From NCBI RefSeq assembly GCF_022846255.1, contig NZ_AP025682.1: 64,000 bases of DNA. One strand, given 5' to 3'. Of the stretch, positions 4,626 to 24,603 are shown piece by piece. A program made the position numbers and the translations under genes. The notes under the pieces were generated by a model that was not told the DNA's origin, ran no database searches, and saw nothing but the letters and a program-made list of their open reading frames with translations. The stretch's first letter is position 1. Each line of letters starts with the position of its first letter. Source of the stretch: Escherichia coli (GTDB taxonomy: Bacteria > Pseudomonadota > Gammaproteobacteria > Enterobacterales > Enterobacteriaceae).

Positions 4626-7055
4626 TCACGAATACTTTTTCGTTCGTCGCGTCGGTGCGGTGTTTGCCGGGTCGTCCGGCCAGACATGTTTGGGATAACG
4701 CCCTTTCATCTCTTTTTGCACCTCACGGTACGCTCCTTTCCAGAAGGCGCTCAAATCACGCGTGATTTGCAGCGGCCTTTGGGCAGGGGAAAGCAACTCC
4801 AGCACCAACGGTACGCGCCCCTGGGCGATAGTCGGATTAGTGGCCTCACCAAACATCTCCTGCATTCTCACCGCCAGCGCGGGCGGGTTATCTTCATGGT
4901 AACGAATGGCGATCCGGCTTCCCGTCGGCACAGTGTAATGCGCAGGCAATTCACTATCCAGACGTTGCTGCATTACCCAATCAAGTAATCCACGCAGTGC
5001 CTGATAAATATCGAGTGATTTCAGGCCGCGTAGCGAATGTACGCCTGTCATATGCGGCAGTAGCCACGTTTCCAGCGTCGCCAACAAACTTTCATCATCA
5101 ACCGCTGGCCAGTCATATTCCGGCAACCACTTTGCGGCGCATAACAAACGCAAGCGTAGCTGTTCCGCTTCCGCCGTCCAGTTGAGCACGCTTAAACCTT
5201 TATCACGAATGCCGTTAAGCATCGCCTGATGCAACTCGTCTTCCGAGGGTTTCGCCAGCGGTTGCACTTTTACCGTCAACTGACCAATTTGCAGCCGACG
5301 CCAGGCTTTCAGCGTACCTTGCGCGTCATCCCACTCCACGGTGTCCGATTGCTGTACCAGCTGCGGGCAGCGTTGTACTAACTCATCAATATCGACCGGC
5401 AGCGCCAGTAAAATCCGTGCATCCGGTGAGGCGCTGCCCTGCAATAATAACGGTGCGATCAACCATTCGTGGCGGCTTAGCGCATCGTCGGCATCGAGCA
5501 TCGCCCCCATGCCGTTCGCCAGTTGATAGCGTTCATCTTGCCCACGGCGACGAGCAATGCGATCGGCATACGCTCTGGCAAGTAGCGGCGCGATAAGCGA
5601 ACTGTCTGCCTCACCGCCGCGTACGTTTAAGCGTTTTAACAGTTGCTGACTACGTTGCTGCCAGGCGGGTTGATTGCGCGAAAAAGCCACGCCCAGGTCA
5701 CTATTGCCCATCCGTGGCGGCTCTTCGAGAATGGCGGCAATTTTTGCCGCGGTAGCAGCTTCGTCGTCGTTCTTCGCGCTAACCAGCATTGCCGCTAAAC
5801 GCGGATCGTTACCCAGCGCTGCCATTTTTTGCCCTTGCGCGCTTAGGCGTTCACCGTCCAGCGCCCCCAGCATCCGTAACAGGCGTTTCGCGGCCAGTAG
5901 ATTCACCGTTGGCGGTTGATCCATCCAGCTCATCTGCGCCGGATCGCTGCATCCCCATTGCAGTAATTCCATCAGCAAACCGGAAAGATCGCTTTGTAAG
6001 ATCTCCGGTTCACTTTGTGCGGCAGCGCGTTCTGCTTGTTCTTTGGCGATTAAATGCAGGCAGATACCCGGCTCCAGACGCCCGGCACGCCCGGCACGTT
6101 GCGTCATCGACGCCTGACTAACGCGTTGAGTAACCAGCCGCGTAAGCCCTGTACGCGGATCAAAACGCGCCACCCTTTCCTGGGCACAATCCACCACCAG
6201 ACGAATACCTTCGATGGTTAAACTTGTTTCAGCAATATTGGTCGCCAGCACCACTTTACGCATCCCTTGCGGTGCCGGGAGGATCGCTTTTCGCTGATCG
6301 TTCAGCGACAACGCGCCATACAGCGGGCAGAGCAACACATCACTGCCGATGCGTGAAGCCAGTTGTTCCTGCACACGCTGAATTTCTCCGACGCCAGGTA
6401 AAAATAACAGTAATGATCCATTTTCCTGACGCAGCATTTCGGCGGTGGCAACCGCGACGGCTTCGTCAAAACGCTGATGAGCGGGCAGCGGCAAATAACG
6501 GCGTTCAACCGGAAACGAGCGCCCTTCTGAGATGACGACGGGCGCTTCTGGCAGCATTTGCTGCAAGCGGTCGTTGTCCAGCGTAGCCGACATAATCAGC
6601 AGTTTAAGGTCATCACGCAGACCTTGTTGCACATCGAGTAACAGCGCCAACGCCAAATCCGCCTGCAAGCTGCGCTCATGAAATTCATCAAGGATCACCA
6701 ATCCAACACCGCTCAGTTCCGGGTCACGCTGGATCATCCGCGTCAGCACGCCTTCGGTAACCACTTCCAGGCGGGTATTCGGCCCGACGCAGTTTTGCGC
6801 ACGCATCCGGTAGCCAACGGTATCGCCTGGCTTTTCGTTAAGCAGCTCCGCCAGTCGTTGCGCAACGTTACGCGCCGCCAGACGACGCGGCTCCAGCAGG
6901 ATAATTTTCCCGTTAATGCCGGGATGCGCCAGCAGTTGCAGCGGCAGCCAGGTTGATTTCCCGGCCCCGGTCGGCGCACTTAATAACACCTGCGATGCAC
7001 CATCGAGGGCAGCAAGTAACTCAGGTAAGACGGCAGCAACGGGCAACGACGACAC
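4626..7055 (-). CDS. hrpB: ATP-dependent RNA helicase HrpB (DEAH-box)
   Basis: ORF track 4626..7100; GTG at 7055 gives (M)SSLPVAAVLPELL N-terminus and 809 aa; Walker A SAPTGAGKST, DEFH motif. Confidence 0.88.
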   Translation of the reverse strand: MSSLPVAAVLPELLAALDGASQVLLSAPTGAGKSTWLPLQLLAHPGINGKIILLEPRRLAARNVAQRLAELLNEKPGDTVGYRMRAQNCVGPNTRLEVVTEGVLTRMIQRDPELSGVGLVILDEFHERSLQADLALALLLDVQQGLRDDLKLLIMSATLDNDRLQQMLPEAPVVISEGRSFPVERRYLPLPAHQRFDEAVAVATAEMLRQENGSLLLFLPGVGEIQRVQEQLASRIGSDVLLCPLYGALSLNDQRKAILPAPQGMRKVVLATNIAETSLTIEGIRLVVDCAQERVARFDPRTGLTRLVTQRVSQASMTQRAGRAGRLEPGICLHLIAKEQAERAAAQSEPEILQSDLSGLLMELLQWGCSDPAQMSWMDQPPTVNLLAAKRLLRMLGALDGERLSAQGQKMAALGNDPRLAAMLVSAKNDDEAATAAKIAAILEEPPRMGNSDLGVAFSRNQPAWQQRSQQLLKRLNVRGGEADSSLIAPLLARAYADRIARRRGQDERYQLANGMGAMLDADDALSRHEWLIAPLLLQGSASPDARILLALPVDIDELVQRCPQLVQQSDTVEWDDAQGTLKAWRRLQIGQLTVKVQPLAKPSEDELHQAMLNGIRDKGLSVLNWTAEAEQLRLRLLCAAKWLPEYDWPAVDDESLLATLETWLLPHMTGVHSLRGLKSLDIYQALRGLLDWVMQQRLDSELPAHYTVPTGSRIAIRYHEDNPPALAVRMQEMFGEATNPTIAQGRVPLVLELLSPAQRPLQITRDLSAFWKGAYREVQKEMKGRYPKHVWPDDPANTAPTRRTKKYS

Positions 7056-18208: not shown

Positions 18209-19471
18209 ATGAAGACATTCTTCAGATACTTTCTTTTTTTAGCACTATGCTCTTGTTGTTATACAGCAAGCGCCGGCATCGATGATCACGTCGGCTATAT
18301 TGTTGGGAATGATTACGGTGTTGGGCCTGGAGACCAAAAATGGCGTGAGGCAGGTCCCAATGGAGATGTTACCGTCAAATTCCGGTATGGATCAGGCACC
18401 AATAATTTAGTTTTTTATAAACCAACCCAACTTGGCCCAACCGGGGTGTCATTAAAATGGGAGCAGTTAGATTCCGCTTCGGGTAGAGGTTTCCTTTACT
18501 GTAACAGAAGTAGTAACTCAAGTGGCGAACCAATGTCTATTGAACATAAAATGGTTGATTCCGGTAAAAGTTATGGCGGACATAAACTCTTTGAGACATC
18601 TGTTCCAGGTCTGTATTATACATTGGCAATATCAAACATTTGGTCAGCATATACATCTACCAATATCAACTCATCAGGCATATATATTGGCGATTCTACG
18701 GACCAAACTTTTTACTGGCGTGGCGAAAGTGAGCAAACCCTATATCGGTCTTGCAACAATGCAAATACAAAAAATAAATATTGGGCCGTTGGTGGCGTTA
18801 TGCAAACGCTCACGATTGAATTTTATACCGATACCAACTTTAACCCGACAACGAATCAACGGGTAACATTGTCCAAAACAGATGGTTACCTCTACTCATT
18901 CAAAGCATATGGTGCTGGCGTTGGTATCAAGAGTTATTTTCTTAAAATCGACTTTGACCTGACAGATATCGTATTAACCAACCCCACCTGCTTTACTGCT
19001 GTACTTACCGGAAAATCAGTAAGTGGTTCGACGGTAAAAATGGGAGAATATGCACCAGGACAGATAAAAAATGGCGCGACTCCGGTTCCTTTTGATATTT
19101 CTCTCAAAAACTGTGTTCGCGTTGGCGATATAGAGACAAAGCTATCTTCAGGGAAGTTAGGTACAGAAAACAAGCAACTCCTGGGTAACACACTCACTGG
19201 AAGCGACACAGCAAAAGGCGTTGGGGTATTGATTGAAGGATTAGAAAACAGTAAAAGTGCCTTAATGATACTGAAACCTAATGATCCAAGTTCTGTTTAT
19301 AAAGATAATACGGGTCAGACTCAGGATAACGATTCAGATGCGATTTACCCGGAAGCTGACGGTATAACTTATCCACTTCATTTCCAGGCTACATTAAAAC
19401 AAGACGGTAATATTGCTATAGAACCGGGGGATTTTAAAGCCACCAGCACTTTTCAGGTTACCTACCCCTGA
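18209..19471 (+). CDS. yadC: Fimbrial tip adhesin-like subunit
   Basis: Within ORF 18167..19471; ATG 18209 after GGAG; signal peptide [22 protein letters not shown]; two-domain size (420 aa) with pilin-like C-terminus ...TSTFQVTYP. Confidence 0.7.
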
Positions 19472-19582
19472 TAACACTATTGCACCGCCAGACAATGGCG
19501 GTGCGATACGGATAAATCATTGCCCCCACCAATGTGACTGATAAAATGCGAGACAGCACAACATCATTTATCAGGATACGCT

Positions 19583-20377
19583 ATGAAACCAACCACGATT
19601 GCTTCATTGCAGAAATGCAAGCAGGACAAAAAACGTTTCGCAACCATCACCGCTTACGACTATAGCTTCGCAAAACTGTTTGCCGAAGAAGGACTTAACG
19701 TCATGCTGGTAGGCGACTCACTGGGCATGACGGTTCAGGGGCATGACTCCACGCTACCGGTTACCGTTGCCGATATCGCCTATCACACCGCCGCTGTGCG
19801 TCGCGGCGCGCCAAACTGCCTTCTGCTGGCTGACCTGCCATTTATGGCGTATGCCACGCCGGAACAAGCCTTTGAAAACGCCGCAACGGTAATGCGTGCC
19901 GGAGCCAACATGGTCAAAATTGAAGGAGGTGAGTGGCTGGTGGACACCGTACAAATGCTGACCGAACGTGCCGTTCCAGTTTGTGGTCATTTAGGCCTAA
20001 CCCCACAGTCAGTGAATATTTTCGGTGGCTACAAAGTCCAGGGGCGCGGCGATGAAGCGGGCGATCGACTGCTCAGCGATGCATTAGCCTTAGAAGCTGC
20101 TGGGGCACAACTGCTGGTACTGGAGTGCGTGCCGGTTGAACTGGCAAAACGCATTACCGAAGCACTGGCGATCCCGGTTATCGGTATTGGCGCAGGCAAC
20201 GTCACTGACGGGCAAATTCTCGTGATGCACGACGCGTTCGGCATTACCGGCGGTCATATTCCTAAATTCGCCAAAAACTTCCTCGCCGAAACGGGCGACA
20301 TCCGCGCGGCTGTGCGGCAGTATATGGCTGAAGTGGAGTCCGGCGTTTACCCGGGCGAAGAACACAGTTTCCATTAA
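19583..20377 (+). CDS. panB: 3-methyl-2-oxobutanoate hydroxymethyltransferase
   Basis: ORF 19583..20377 (264 aa) [33 protein letters not shown]. Confidence 0.93.
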
Positions 20378-20388
20378 GGAGTGACGTT

Positions 20389-21240
20389 GTGTTAATTATC
20401 GAAACCCTGCCGCTGCTGCGTCAGCAAATTCGCCGCCTGCGTATGGAAGGTAAGCGCGTGGCGCTGGTGCCCACCATGGGTAACCTGCACGATGGCCATA
20501 TGAAGCTGGTCGACGAAGCCAAAGCCCGCGCCGATGTGGTCGTCGTCAGTATTTTCGTTAACCCGATGCAGTTTGACCGCCCGGAAGATCTGGCACGTTA
20601 TCCACGGACCTTGCAAGAGGACTGCGAAAAGCTGAACAAACGTAAAGTGGATTTAGTTTTCGCGCCTTCGGTAAAAGAGATCTACCCGAACGGTACAGAA
20701 ACCCACACCTATGTTGATGTTCCCGGTCTTTCCACCATGCTGGAAGGTGCCAGCCGTCCGGGACATTTTCGCGGCGTTTCGACTATCGTCAGCAAGCTGT
20801 TCAATCTGGTCCAGCCGGACATCGCCTGCTTCGGTGAAAAAGATTTTCAGCAACTGGCGCTGATCCGCAAAATGGTTGCCGATATGGGCTTCGATATTGA
20901 GATTGTCGGAGTGCCGATTATGCGCGCGAAAGACGGTCTGGCGCTCAGTTCCCGTAACGGCTATCTGACGGCGGAACAACGTAAAATTGCGCCGGGTCTC
21001 TACAAAGTCTTAAGTTCAATTGCCGACAAATTGCAGGCTGGCGAACGGGATCTCGATGAAATTATTGCTATTGCCGGGCAAGAACTGAATGAAAAAGGTT
21101 TCCGCTCCGATGATATTCAGATTCGCGATGCCGACACATTGCTGGAGGTCTCTGAAAACAGCAAACGCGCAGTGATTCTGGTAGCCGCCTGGCTTGGCGA
21201 TGCTCGCCTGATCGACAACAAACTGGTCGAACTGGCGTAA
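20389..21240 (+). CDS. panC: Pantoate--beta-alanine ligase (pantothenate synthetase)
   Basis: ORF 20389..21240 (283 aa, GTG start after AAGGA); (M)[36 protein letters not shown]. Confidence 0.93.
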
Positions 21241-21244
21241 TGCT

Positions 21245-21283
21245 TAACTGGCGCTACGGCTGATGGCGCCAGTTATTCATTGC
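21245..21283. terminator. Bidirectional intrinsic terminator between convergent panC and yadD
   Basis: Perfect 10-bp stem TAACTGGCGC / GCGCCAGTTA (21245-21254 / 21266-21275) with 11-nt loop, followed by TTCATT. Confidence 0.6.
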
Positions 21284-21321
21284 CACGTTATCTGTAAGCA
21301 ATTATTCATATCGTAGACTAC

Positions 21322-22212
21322 TTAGTTAGAGTTAATTAGCTTATCAATCTCTGCAAGAGATAAAGCTGTCACCTCTGCAACGTCTTCCCGAGACATTCCT
21401 TTACTCAGAAGACGCAGGGCGAATTCCTGACTTACTTCCTGTCTTCCCTGCTGAATCCCCTTCTCTTCAAACCACTGCGCCAGCGTCATCATAGACTCCC
21501 CTCCCGTTTCCCTGTCTCTCACCACACCATAAAACAAATCCGCTTGTTCAGTATGACCGCGTTGCAGCATATAGTTTTGCATGGCAACTAACTGACTTCC
21601 GCTAGTGTACCCTTCGTCAATCAGCGTGACCAGTTGCTCCAGCAATAACATTAAGTCGCGCTGGCGAATATGTTTTTGCAGCAGTTCGAGAATCGCAATC
21701 CGCCGATGTTGCATGATTTCGTCATCCGGTGTGATAGTGATATCCACCAGCGGGAAAGGACTGTTATAGACGCGTCGCGCCAGCTCCGGCGAGTAAAACA
21801 TATCAAACCAGCACATTGAGAGCGGATAAGGTGTGGCCTCGCCCTGATAAAACAGAATCGGCACCACCAGCGGCAGCTTATCGTGATCCGCCTCCAGATG
21901 CCGGTGCATGGCGGCAATGGCATAGCGCATCATGCGAAAGGTCATTTTCTTATCCGGCTTGCTTTGATGTTCAATCACCACATGCAAATAACCGGGATTG
22001 CCCTGCATTTGTACGGAATAGAGTACGTCCGTGCTGTGTCCTTTCAGGCTTTCCTCAATAAAACTCCCCGACTCAAGATGCAGCGTGTCGAGGTCACACA
22101 GTTCGCGTAGCTCCGCTGGCAAATGGATATCCAGAAAGTCGCGAGCCGTTTCCGCATGCATTAAAAATTGTTTAAACACCGCATCATGCGGTGTGGTACT
22201 CGGTGCATCCAT
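21322..22212 (-). CDS. rpnC: Recombination-promoting nuclease RpnC (Rpn / transposase_31 / PD-(D/E)XK family)
   Basis: ORF 21322..22212 (296 aa) MDAPSTTPHDAVFKQFLMHAETARDFLDIHLPAELRE...; recognised as YadD/RpnC; sits between panC and panD as in E. coli. Confidence 0.8.
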   Translation of the reverse strand: MDAPSTTPHDAVFKQFLMHAETARDFLDIHLPAELRELCDLDTLHLESGSFIEESLKGHSTDVLYSVQMQGNPGYLHVVIEHQSKPDKKMTFRMMRYAIAAMHRHLEADHDKLPLVVPILFYQGEATPYPLSMCWFDMFYSPELARRVYNSPFPLVDITITPDDEIMQHRRIAILELLQKHIRQRDLMLLLEQLVTLIDEGYTSGSQLVAMQNYMLQRGHTEQADLFYGVVRDRETGGESMMTLAQWFEEKGIQQGRQEVSQEFALRLLSKGMSREDVAEVTALSLAEIDKLINSN

Positions 22213-22485
22213 CTTCCCTGCCTTCCGTGTTGTCTTGCGTGAAGGCAGTATCCAGTCAAGGTGTGCCGTCGTCAGCCGCCTCTTTAGTGTTTACCGAGCA
22301 GCGTTCAGATAAATTTCAATTGGTTACAGGCGTTACATGGCACGCTTCGGCACGGTACGCAAACTGCTGCTGCAAATGCCGTCAGATGAGTAGACACTAA
22401 ACAAAAATCGGGCAATACTGCGTGAGAATTTCCTCAAAGCAGGCATCGCCTGCTTCGTTAACGACAGGGTAGAAAGGTAGAAGTT

Positions 22486-22866
22486 ATGATTCGCACGATG
22501 CTGCAGGGCAAACTCCACCGCGTGAAAGTGACTCATGCGGACCTGCACTATGAAGGTTCTTGCGCCATTGATCAGGATTTTCTTGACGCAGCCGGTATTC
22601 TCGAAAACGAAGCCATTGATATCTGGAATGTCACCAACGGCAAGCGTTTCTCCACCTATGCCATCGCGGCAGAACGCGGTTCGAGAATTATTTCTGTTAA
22701 CGGTGCGGCAGCCCACTGCGCCAGCGTCGGCGATATTGTCATCATCGCCAGCTTCGTTACCATGCCAGATGAAGAAGCTCGCACCTGGCGACCCAACGTC
22801 GCCTATTTTGAAGGCGACAACGAAATGAAACGTACCGCGAAAGCGATTCCGGTACAGGTTGCCTGA
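22486..22866 (+). CDS. panD: Aspartate 1-decarboxylase proenzyme
   Basis: ORF 22486..22866 (126 aa) [33 protein letters not shown]; self-cleavage site G-S present. Confidence 0.93.
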
Positions 22867-22869
22867 TTG

Positions 22870-24099
22870 TTATCCCTGCGGCTGGTTACTCACCAGCCGC
22901 GACATCGTCTCCAGCGAATCCGTTCTTAAGATATAAAGTCGTTTTAGTAACAACGGATTATCCCCCGGTTTTACTTTGCCTTTCATGGTCGTCACCGCCA
23001 GGTGAAATCCGGCTTCTTTTGCTGCCTTCACGGCTTTGTCATTAAATCCGCCAAATGGATAAGAAAGATACAAAACATGTGGATTAAATTGCGCCAGAGC
23101 GCGGCGTGAACGTGCAAAATCAAACAGAATATTGTGCTCACTACGGCTCAGCAATATAGGCCGCCGATAACCATCTATCCGATGCAAAAAATGAGTATGT
23201 GACTGGAAATCAAATATATCGCGAATTTCGTTAAGTTCAGAAACGCTCATAAATTGCAGCGATTTTGGGTTCCATTTCTGCGGGTGACGTTTGATGCGCG
23301 AGGTAACAATAAACGCCGTCGCCTTCATACCATATTGTTTCAACACAGGATATGCATAGCGGCTCACCGACTTGAGGCCATCATCAAAGGTAATTACCAC
23401 CGCTCGCGCAGGGAGATTGATCTTATTCTTCACGTAACCTTCCAGCTGCGCCATGCTCAGTGTCGCGTATCCCCTGTCGCGCAGCCAGGCCATCTGGTTA
23501 TTGAAAGCGCGTACCGAGGTGGTCGTCGAAGTATGGCGAAAACGGGTGTTTTCTTCGTCGCGCAAAATATGGTGATAGGTTAGCACCGGCAAGCCATTAT
23601 CGGGTTGGGCATCCAGCGCGCTGATATAGGCCAGTCGATCGCCAATGCGGATCTGATACCAGGTTTGATTTAACCTGTCTTTCAGTTTATGCAAAATCGG
23701 GTAGCGCAAATTGTCCGCCAGTACTCCAAATGGCGCACTGCCCACACTCGGCGCGTTATAAACCGGCGTATCTTTCCAGGTTATTAAGTTCTGATTACTC
23801 AGCGGCTTGTTGAGGTCACCCAAACCATCTTCAACTTTTTGTCGCCCCTGAACCGGCTCGAGATGGCCTTTATCGATAAACCCTTTACCAAAGCCAAAAT
23901 TAAATACGTAATAACTTGCGGCAGTGGGCTCCACGGCAATGATTTGTCCGGCCCGAATATTCCCTACCGTCACCATTTTGTCGCCAATTTGCGCCCAGAC
24001 CGCGGCATTTTCGATGGTTTGCATATAACGGGCAGGTAACGCGGCACTGACACTTGCGGTAAACAGCATCAGCAGGAGAATAACAGCTTGTTTGTACAT
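22870..24099 (-). CDS. yadE: Predicted secreted polysaccharide deacetylase (NodB-homology domain protein)
   Basis: ORF 22870..24099 (409 aa); signal peptide [19 protein letters not shown]; recognised as YadE; stop is 3 nt from panD stop. Confidence 0.8.
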
Positions 24100-24162
24100 G
24101 AAAAAATAACCGAGGGTGAAACAACGCTTTTATTGTAGCAAAAGCGTCATCAGAATCGCGGG

Positions 24163-24603
24163 TTAATACTCATACAAATTATGTTTGAGGACGAAAGGCG
24201 GATTTTTTTGTTGTTGGTGCCAAAGACTACTCACCTCCGGCGCACCCAGTTCGACAATATGCTCGCGAAACGCTGAACTGGTCATGGTTTCACGGCAAGC
24301 CATCATCTGTTCAATTAACGGTAACGTGACACCAGAAATCACTTCGCAACGGGAGTGTTTGTGGCTTAATAATGAAGCCACGCGGTACGGTGGCGCTCCG
24401 GCTATATCGGTTAAAAAGATAACGCCCTCACCAGAGTCCGTTTCATGCAAGGCATCGCACATCATGCGGCTGAGCATATTAGAGCTTAATCCGCGCCAGA
24501 AATTCACGGCCCGGCACTGAAGAAGTGCCCCATGTTTTTTCTCCAGCGCATCCAGTAGCTCTTGCGCCCGGTCATCGTGACAGGTAATTACCCAACCTAA
24601 CAT
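24163..24603 (-). CDS. yadI: Putative PTS enzyme IIA component (mannose-family EIIA-like)
   Basis: ORF 24163..24603 (146 aa) MLGWVITCHDDRAQELLDALEKKHGALLQ; recognised as YadI. Confidence 0.78.
   Translation of the reverse strand: MLGWVITCHDDRAQELLDALEKKHGALLQCRAVNFWRGLSSNMLSRMMCDALHETDSGEGVIFLTDIAGAPPYRVASLLSHKHSRCEVISGVTLPLIEQMMACRETMTSSAFREHIVELGAPEVSSLWHQQQKNPPFVLKHNLYEY

Follow-up and report, generated by a model that had tools for sequence, protein, structure and literature searches.

Rpn genes have been described as gene-within-gene toxin-antitoxin systems (Kingston 2017; Zhong 2023, PMC10400941). Small C-terminal RpnS proteins are produced, and RpnS binds and blocks the full-length RpnL, so that each gene represents a toxin-antitoxin pair (Zhong 2023, PMC10400941). 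Mg-dependent DNA endonuclease activity was demonstrated for purified RpnA only (Zhong 2023, PMC10400941; Kingston 2017). The first helix of RpnS contains 4-aa repeats that vary between strains, and the addition of one repeat to either RpnS or RpnL abolishes neutralisation (Zhong 2023, PMC10400941). For RpnC of Escherichia coli K-12, both products were detected by immunoblot; in an SOS reporter, RpnCL induced SOS, and this was suppressed by RpnCS only when the repeat number of both was equal (Zhong 2023, PMC10400941). The plasmid homologue RpnP2 protects against T-even phages (Zhong 2023, PMC10400941).

Here, the gene located between panC and panD was analyzed in a 64-kb stretch of E. coli DNA, referred to as the window. 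Published work already covers this gene and its place between panC and panD, and reports that it is without transposon ends and carries a nested antitoxin; rpnCSs copies and fusions have likewise been described. The additions made here are small and consist of the exact fusion junction, a relic of the panC stop codon beside the insert and junctions that are common to three genera. The coordinates of all features are collected in Table 1.

Table 1. Features of the rpnC region, with positions in the window and the basis of each assignment.
Feature	Position	Strand	Basis or detail
panB	19583-20377	+	Pfam and NCBIfam equivalog models
panC, left flank	20389-21240	+	TIGR00018 at 433 bits
Insert missing from rpn-less Enterobacteriaceae, ~1.15 kb	21238..22390	.	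alignments of filled and empty sites
Hairpin between convergent panC and rpnC	21239..21281	.	core arms AACTGGCGC / GCGCCAGTT; inverted-repeat search and folding
3' 90 nt of the gene (LLSKGMSREDVAEVTALSLAEIDKLINSN*), assigned to an rpnCSs-type cassette	21322..21411	-	tail alignments
Nested in-frame ORF rpnCS, predicted antitoxin	21322..21492	-	56 aa from M241 or 55 aa from M242
rpnC (yadD), full-length ORF for RpnCL, 296 aa	21322..22212	-	ORF, family profiles and exact public protein
Hypervariable 4-aa (12-nt) repeat site	21421..21456	-	minimal IQQG-RQEV-SQEF, residues 253-264; protein alignments
Shine-Dalgarno GGGAGGGGAG for the internal start	21496..21505	-	read from the sequence
Transposase_31 domain, residues 7-207	21592..22194	-	PD-(D/E)XK core: D10, D62, E81, Q83, R93, PDDE motif D163/D164
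AGTAGACAC, relic of the ancestral panC last codon, TAG stop and next bases	22389..22397	+	alignment of empty and filled sites
Promoter-like TAGACA-17-AATACT upstream of panD	22391..22419	+	consensus scan; both hexamers invariant in filled and empty loci
panD, right flank	22486-22866	+	TIGR00223 at 228 bits
yadE	22870-24099	-	Pfam and NCBIfam equivalog models

Identity of the gene and its nuclease domain

The ORF listing of the window contained an intact ORF with an ATG start on the minus strand between panC and panD. Together with the profiles of the flanking genes, this agreed with the initial annotation, which had described a 296-aa protein encoded opposite to the pantothenate genes. The wider neighbourhood consists of the pan genes, a fimbrial operon, a deacetylase, a PTS component and an ABC transporter. 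An Rfam scan of positions 19000-24500 gave two matches only, both at chance level.

The initial annotation had assigned the protein to the Rpn (Transposase_31, PD-(D/E)XK) family and had named a domain search as the test that could overturn this. This search placed the protein in the Rpn family, with the curated cut-offs passed for both family models: PF04754 (Transposase_31) matched with an E-value of 4.2e-87 and 291 bits versus a cut-off of 21, residues 7-207 aligning to profile positions 1-201 of 203, and TIGR01784 (the Rpn family model) matched with 277 bits versus a cut-off of 52.1. The RpnA equivalog model NF007361 gave 321 bits and NF007418, labelled 'ISNCY family transposase', gave 323 bits. 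As these scores are far under the equivalog cut-offs of 583 bits, the window protein is, by its profile scores, not RpnA or a member of either group but only a paralogue of these proteins.

The exact 296-aa protein is available in public records under WP_137501334.1, where it is named 'recombination-promoting nuclease RpnC [Escherichia coli]', and is recorded on five contigs only, which are E. coli contigs with the same neighbours (e.g. GCA_005387665.1). Residues 1-235 are 97.4% identical to RpnC of K-12; this identity and the name of the public protein confirmed the earlier identification as RpnC/YadD. By its position between panC and panD, its location on the opposite strand and its near-identity to K-12 RpnC, the window gene is to be regarded as E. 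coli rpnC (yadD), a gene that has already been described. A 2.1-kb query spanning the gene matched in 5424/5426 complete E. coli genomes, which annotate it as rpnC, and a 219-nt query from the 3' end of the gene matched in 5415/5426, the median being one site per genome.

The residues that were mutated in RpnA (D11, D63, E82, Q84, R94 and D165 of the PDDE motif) were used as the catalytic reference set. They align one-to-one with D10, D62, E81, Q83, R93 and D164 of the window protein. The first five are invariant in 34 homologues and D164 is an aspartate in 33/34. The folds expected for an Rpn protein are an alpha-beta-beta-beta-alpha-beta PD-(D/E)XK core and, at the C-terminus, a small three-helix bundle. 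An AF2 model of the window protein was of modest quality (mean pLDDT 63.5) and contained helices at residues 244-251, 255-270, 275-282 and 286-295, with a pLDDT of 71-77 from residue 261 onward. A Foldseek search of this model against the PDB gave no significant match, as expected at such a pLDDT. The C-terminal domain matched DUF4351 below the cut-off (E 0.008), and for PF27070 (HTH_Rpn_C) there was only a precomputed match classified as 'faint'. The sole match in a PDB sequence search, a weak (E 0.0048) and uninformative one, paired the C-terminal helices with a designed 'CAP repeat' protein; the crystal structure of RpnAS is too divergent to be found by such a search. An open stretch of 90-92 codons in the +1 frame inside rpnC, present in several lineages, was not accepted as a gene: 200/2000 synonymous shuffles were as good, and the stretch is missing from the Salmonella gene and from rpnA.

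Internal start, repeat region and the fused 3' end

Near the 3' end of the gene, within the range of about 55-75 codons ahead of the stop codon that is expected for an internal Rpn start (Zhong 2023, PMC10400941), GGGAGGGGAG-TCT-ATG-ATG is found at 21505-21487 on the minus strand, the two ATG codons at 21492-21487 encoding M241 and M242. The experimentally confirmed internal start of RpnA, M244, aligns with M242 of the window protein. At the DNA level, a ribosome binding site and an ATG occur at this position in all of the 12 rpn sequences compared, which cover three lineages and rpnA. GGGAGGGGAG is the same across the Escherichia alleles, one of which has a single base change just upstream, and its place is taken by AAGGAG or AGGAGG in the Pseudocitrobacter and Salmonella genes and in rpnA. 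This arrangement argues for rpnC as a one-gene, two-product locus, in which the internal ribosome binding site and ATG would give a predicted RpnCS within the same frame. No internal promoter from which a short rpnCS transcript could start was detected on the minus strand with a simple sigma-70 consensus scan; internal transcription start sites were reported for all K-12 rpn genes (Zhong 2023, PMC10400941). In the initial, ORF-level reading the nested second product had been overlooked.

Variation between alleles falls exactly in the repeat region, 8-20 residues past the internal start. The repeat region of the window is the shortest among the alleles compared: K-12 has one more IEKG unit, and the highest number among the strains compared, 7.8 tandem 12-nt copies, was found in L003. 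Tandem Repeats Finder detected no tandem array in the repeat region of the window. Because a single added repeat abolishes neutralisation (Zhong 2023, PMC10400941), it is predicted that the RpnCS proteins of the window and of K-12 could not substitute for each other.

In some E. coli strains, rpnC is followed downstream by ~320 additional bases that contain a separate gene for a 71-aa protein; this is the rpnCSs of Zhong et al. (PMC10400941). A probe specific for the rpnCSs segment showed it to be present in 1574/5426 complete E. coli genomes. When the window was compared with the two-gene allele of strain 2016C-3878, the last 90 coding nucleotides were identical to the rpnCSs tail (90/90) versus 73/90 to the rpnC tail, and the next 41 nt downstream matched the rpnCSs flank at 39/41 positions versus 25/41 for the rpnC flank. 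In the base-by-base alignment, positions 21282-21411 align with the 3' end of rpnCSs plus its downstream flank and those from 21412 onward with rpnC proper, the fusion junction lying inside a sequence common to both copies that encodes LLSKGMSREDVAE. Since the tail is identical over 90/90 nucleotides to the separate rpnCSs gene, the window allele is, as judged from these alignments, a recombinational fusion of rpnC with the tail of the downstream rpnCSs. On the simplest reading it would have originated from a deletion of ~326 bp by homologous recombination between two direct LLSKGMSREDVAE-coding copies. The junction is rare, with no colinear match of >94.5% to it in any complete E. coli genome.

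Insertion site and history of the pan-locus gene

The panC neighbourhoods of 80 species-level Enterobacteriaceae genomes were collected, and panB, panC, panD, yadE and rpn were located in each. In about 70 of the 80 species panC is directly followed by panD with a spacer of 31-262 bp, and rpn was found between them in three groups only: Escherichia, Pseudocitrobacter and Salmonella enterica subsp. diarizonae. The four Escherichia loci with rpn belong to E. coli E69, E. albertii, an Escherichia sp. and an E. coli-like contig that is binned under a different name; the nuclease domain of the E69 gene is shortened by an in-frame deletion. The pan-locus rpn occurs in three Pseudocitrobacter species, with an N-terminal domain about 68% identical to that of the window. 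Salmonella enterica subsp. arizonae retains a 415-bp rpn remnant with an internal deletion of ~760 bp. The comparison with rpn-less genomes, which the initial annotation had suggested as a check, thus identified the gene as an insertion at the end of panC.

The alignment of filled and empty sites placed the insertion point in the last codon of panC. In genomes with an empty site, panC ends with ...CAG TAG ACAGGGGTT AAAAATCGGGC (also given as ACAGGGGTT AAAAATCGGGCAATACTGC), and in filled genomes a new panC stop codon directly follows codon 283. The old '(A)GTAGACAC' is kept at 22389-22397 on the far side of the insert, directly before AAAAATCGGGCAATACTG, and TAGACA is invariant in the 11 aligned loci, both filled and empty. 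TAGACA-17-AATACT is the better placed of two promoter-like sites upstream of panD, from which it is inferred to be the panD promoter, probably spared by the insertion. The hairpin at the left end of the insert is common to all three pan-locus rpn lineages and has folding energies of -27.5 and -24.9 kcal/mol on the two strands (z -4.3 and -5.2). It may act as a bidirectional terminator, though it has no U-tract; a terminator scan found no canonical terminator.

Two separate introductions of rpnC between panC and panD were proposed by Kingston 2017, for the reason that two rpn clusters diverge more than their flanking genes. This disproportion was reproduced here: between genera the N-terminal domain is 66-68% identical, compared with 85-98% for PanB/PanC, corresponding to a distance ratio of 2.6-5.4. 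Within Escherichia the same ratio is about 1, so that the N-terminal domain evolves no faster than PanB/PanC. In the three lineages both junctions are common within a few bases, the hairpin at the left end is shared, and the inserts can be aligned at about 70% DNA identity over their whole length, non-coding ends included. The shared junctions, the hairpin and the alignable insert together favour a single insertion, after which the lineages would have diverged quickly or exchanged alleles via the pan flanks. This argument is weaker than it appears because selection for an intact panC and an intact panD promoter forces the same few bases.

Taken together, the chances are considered about even that the pan-locus rpn genes of Escherichia, Pseudocitrobacter and Salmonella derive from one insertion in the last codon of panC, by which TAGACA at the old stop would have been left as the -35 element of the panD promoter. 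Such an insertion would have supplied the new panC stop codon, and later the locus would have diverged rapidly or exchanged alleles by way of the flanking pan genes. The C-terminal antitoxin cassette would have been duplicated and deleted repeatedly, and this turnover would have produced the window allele as one of its deletion products. If true, a single insertion would depart from the two-introduction proposal of Kingston 2017.

Proposed function, rival explanations and known systems

Very probably, rpnC is a one-gene toxin-antitoxin module in which the nuclease RpnCL is silenced by RpnCS, with a likely role in phage defence. RpnCL (296 aa) would be a divalent-metal-dependent PD-(D/E)XK DNA endonuclease with little sequence specificity, whose unrestrained activity would lead to DNA damage and SOS induction. 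RpnCS, of about 56 aa, would be translated in frame from the internal ribosome binding site and ATG at M241/M242. As a small helical domain whose sequence is that of the RpnCL C-terminus, it would pair with this C-terminus and thereby keep the nuclease inactive, and the number of 4-aa repeats in the first helix would set which RpnS pairs with which RpnL. RpnL activity would be released on infection or stress, which likely serves phage defence, in which case RecA-independent recombination would be promoted as a by-product. For the window allele, we infer nuclease activity and antitoxin action; RpnC would presumably act in phage defence, protection having been demonstrated for the plasmid homologue RpnP2 only. 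A scan with PADLOC-DB v2.0.0 gave no match for the window protein, and in the window rpnC lies among housekeeping and fimbrial genes, outside any defence island. These two observations lower the case for a catalogued defence system and not the case for a gene that works like RpnP2.

The initial annotation had interpreted the locus as a domesticated transposase-like gene that has neither visible flanking inverted repeats nor a target duplication, and not as an active element. The missing ends and the lack of mobility were upheld. In a repeat search of the flanks against 500 shuffles, neither terminal inverted repeats nor a target duplication were found for the insert; the best direct repeat was at chance level, being equalled or beaten in 425/500 shuffles. 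The best inverted repeat between the flanks, a 12-mer with 11/12 positions matched (21292-21303 / 22318-22329), was equalled or beaten in 14/500 shuffles. It was not accepted as a transposon end, being marginal against the shuffles, located away from the termini and without its left copy in K-12, where this is deleted. An inverted repeat in the rpnC upstream region (22283-22294 / 22390-22401) was also rejected, the enclosed 136 nt folding no better than shuffles (z +1.1). The Rpn gene for which a connection with P22 pac-like sites has been published is a different one, from Salmonella, and has no relevance for rpnC. Having no terminal repeats or target duplication and occupying one fixed locus, rpnC does not qualify as an insertion sequence or transposon. 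The supposed transposase past did not find support. Co-option of an insertion-sequence gene after the loss of its ends could account for the Pfam family name 'Putative transposase, YhgA-like', for the strong partial score on the NCBIfam 'ISNCY family transposase' model and for the clear insertion relative to about 70 Enterobacteriaceae species with a short spacer. However, the score on that model is far under its cut-off, the ends show none of the expected repeats, and the gene is present as one copy per genome at a fixed site. It is also deemed very unlikely that Rpn proteins ever were transposases: their ends are variable, there is no evidence for autonomous transposition, and no autonomous PD-(D/E)XK transposase is known (Zhong 2023, PMC10400941). 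The activities that have been demonstrated in the Rpn literature are non-specific cleavage and a toxicity that is neutralised by the protein's own C-terminal fragment. A relic transposase is therefore highly improbable; this explanation is largely refuted, with little support beyond the historical family name, and for annotation purposes the 'transposase' label of the family is misleading.

Alternatively, rpnC could be a housekeeping recombination nuclease for the RecA-independent acquisition of foreign DNA (Kingston 2017), with the small product only as its regulator. Overexpressed RpnC raised RecA-independent recombination 2.9-fold (Kingston 2017), rpnC is near-universal in E. coli and kept across Escherichia species, as for a maintained chromosomal function, and housekeeping functions are allowed for by Zhong 2023 (PMC10400941). 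This effect is small, however, and was obtained on overexpression only, the hypervariable repeats and the turnover of the 3' cassette fit an arms race better than housekeeping, and a plasmid homologue gives direct phage protection; a primary recombination role is thus considered unlikely. That the gene is decaying and has no current function is hardly credible. Some relatives do decay, as seen from the deletions in the arizonae remnant and in the nuclease domain of E69, and a Shigella homologue (P0077) additionally matches PF13358. For the window copy decay is nevertheless excluded because its ORF is intact and its residues are conserved, with all catalytic residues and the internal start kept. 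Furthermore, the N-terminal domain shows no accelerated evolution within Escherichia, and both products were detected in K-12 (Zhong 2023, PMC10400941).

With a toxin-antitoxin module as the preferred reading, the locus carries little weight as a discovery and represents no new kind of system. It does call for caution in annotation, since a reading at the ORF level misses the second product, which defines how rpnC works. The details of this allele, namely the fused tail, the minimal repeats, the conserved junctions and the relic stop, could help studies on how nuclease-antitoxin specificity diversifies.

Among known systems, insertion sequences and TnsA-type PD-(D/E)XK transposase subunits share with rpnC the class of nuclease fold and the historical 'transposase' label; rpnC differs from these by being a single fixed copy without terminal repeats, target duplication or partner transposase genes. 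RpnP2, likened here by its description in Zhong 2023 (PMC10400941), has the same family assignment and the same two-product design, but is plasmid-borne and has proven protective against T-even phages. RpnA (YhgA), which serves as the biochemical model of the family, is 50% identical to the window protein over 286 residues, all six residues of the catalytic reference set are matched and the internal starts are aligned; it is encoded at another locus (feoC-rpnA-bioH) and has a divergent C-terminal domain.

The pan-locus rpn genes of Pseudocitrobacter and S. enterica subsp. diarizonae, which constitute the second cluster of Kingston, have both insertion junctions, the left-end hairpin, the orientation and the internal start in common with the window gene. 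They also have a 4-aa repeat region, there made of 2 to 4 MQQG units. In contrast to the Escherichia genes, which stop about 45 nt before the hairpin, their ORF runs into it (...DWR*), and their N-terminal domain shows only 66-68% identity to that of the window, compared with 85-98% for PanB and PanC.

The remaining comparisons lie within E. coli. Two-gene rpnC and rpnCSs alleles, such as that of 2016C-3878, encode a near-identical N-terminal domain, and the tail of their separate rpnCSs with its downstream flank is that of the window. The window differs by lacking ~326 bp, comprising the rpnC tail, the spacer and the 5' part of rpnCSs, which results in one fused gene, and by lacking their expanded RQEV repeats. 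RpnC of K-12 (YadD, b0132) has the same gene order of panC, opposite-strand rpnC, panD and yadE, the same catalytic residues, and an internal ribosome binding site and ATG-ATG identical to those of the window. It is 300 aa long versus 296 aa in the window, which is one IEKG repeat shorter, and its last ~16 residues are MANLPLAEIDKVINLI compared with VTALSLAEIDKLINSN, of the rpnCSs cassette type, in the window, the two tails being identical at 79/90 positions at the DNA level.

Allelic variation around panB-panC and the yad fimbrial operon

Unusually strong differences were observed between E. coli strains in panB and panC when the window was compared with the loci L001-L004. Many 100-nt segments were only 83-94% identical to K-12. 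The panB/panC region of the window was mosaic-like, resembling alleles of other strains. The neighbouring fimbrial adhesin gene on the yadC side was still more variable (43-94%). The divergence and mosaic pattern of panB/panC, combined with the even higher variability of the adhesin gene, suggest that the neighbourhood of the yad fimbrial operon and rpnC is a recombination hotspot.

Altered spacers and rpn genes at the pan locus

In Escherichia albertii NBRC 107761, the spacer between panC and rpnC is ∼156 bp longer than that of E. coli. The extra sequence (…AAGTTGCAGGAAGGCGGCAAGCGAGTGAATCCCCAGG…) resembles an ERIC/IRU repeat inserted right after the panC stop codon and, within the inspected stretch of this locus, occupies the position that the hairpin between panC and rpnC has in the other loci. 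The panC-panD spacer of Salmonella enterica subsp. arizonae was identified as a remnant of a Salmonella-type rpn gene. It aligns to both ends of the diarizonae rpn gene with 86-90% identity, and an internal deletion of ∼760 bp has removed the nuclease domain. RpnC of E. coli strain E69 carries an in-frame deletion of ∼24 residues between PYPL and VDITITPDDE. Since this deletion lies within the nuclease domain, the nuclease of E69 may be inactive, with the antitoxin end left intact.

The three Pseudocitrobacter rpn genes L010, L011, and L014 contain ∼4, 2, and 3 MQQG repeats, respectively. These differing counts indicate that the 4-aa repeats vary not only in E. coli, for which this has been reported, but also in a second lineage at the pan locus.

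Coordinates of the compared features
Feature	Locus	Position	Strand	Size
panB/panC region	window	19300-21240
Hairpin	window	21239-21281
Sequence 3' of the rpnC stop	window	21282-21321	-
E69 rpnC	L007	4947-5771		274 aa
E. albertii panC-rpnC spacer	L008	2620-2840
Pseudocitrobacter rpn	L010, L011, L014	about 4879-5850
arizonae panC-panD spacer	L028	4853-5267		415 bp

Mosaic-like proteins and probable database artefacts

Among the aligned Rpn proteins, several that are derived from metagenomes (P0045, P0049, P0055, P0060, P0062, P0066, and P0093) are mosaic-like. Some of them combine an N-terminus of the kind found in a different rpn paralogue with the C-terminal part of RpnC, and in others the arrangement is reversed. 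Either the paralogues have genuinely recombined, or these proteins could be chimeras that arose in the assembly of short contigs. The protein cluster of P0001, which contains the window RpnC (90% identity, 3075 members), also includes YadE deacetylases, a fragment of a sigma-54 regulator and one protein with the label Streptococcus pneumoniae; the collection evidently contains an error of clustering or labelling here. A contig binned as 'uncultured Oscillospiraceae' (L006, CALXDF010000219.1) carries an E. coli pan locus, with PanB and PanC 99% identical, rpnC and a copy of rpnCSs; very probably, the contig comes from E. coli and was wrongly binned into a metagenome-assembled genome.

Sequence downstream of the rpnC stop codon

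Immediately 3' of the rpnC stop codon, the sequence …ATGAATAACTGGCGC runs into the hairpin and would read …MNNWR. The same arm of the hairpin holds the end of the rpn gene, …(I/D)WR*, in Salmonella and Pseudocitrobacter. Speculatively, the stretch in the window could be the fossil of a former C-terminus that duplication of the cassette has displaced.
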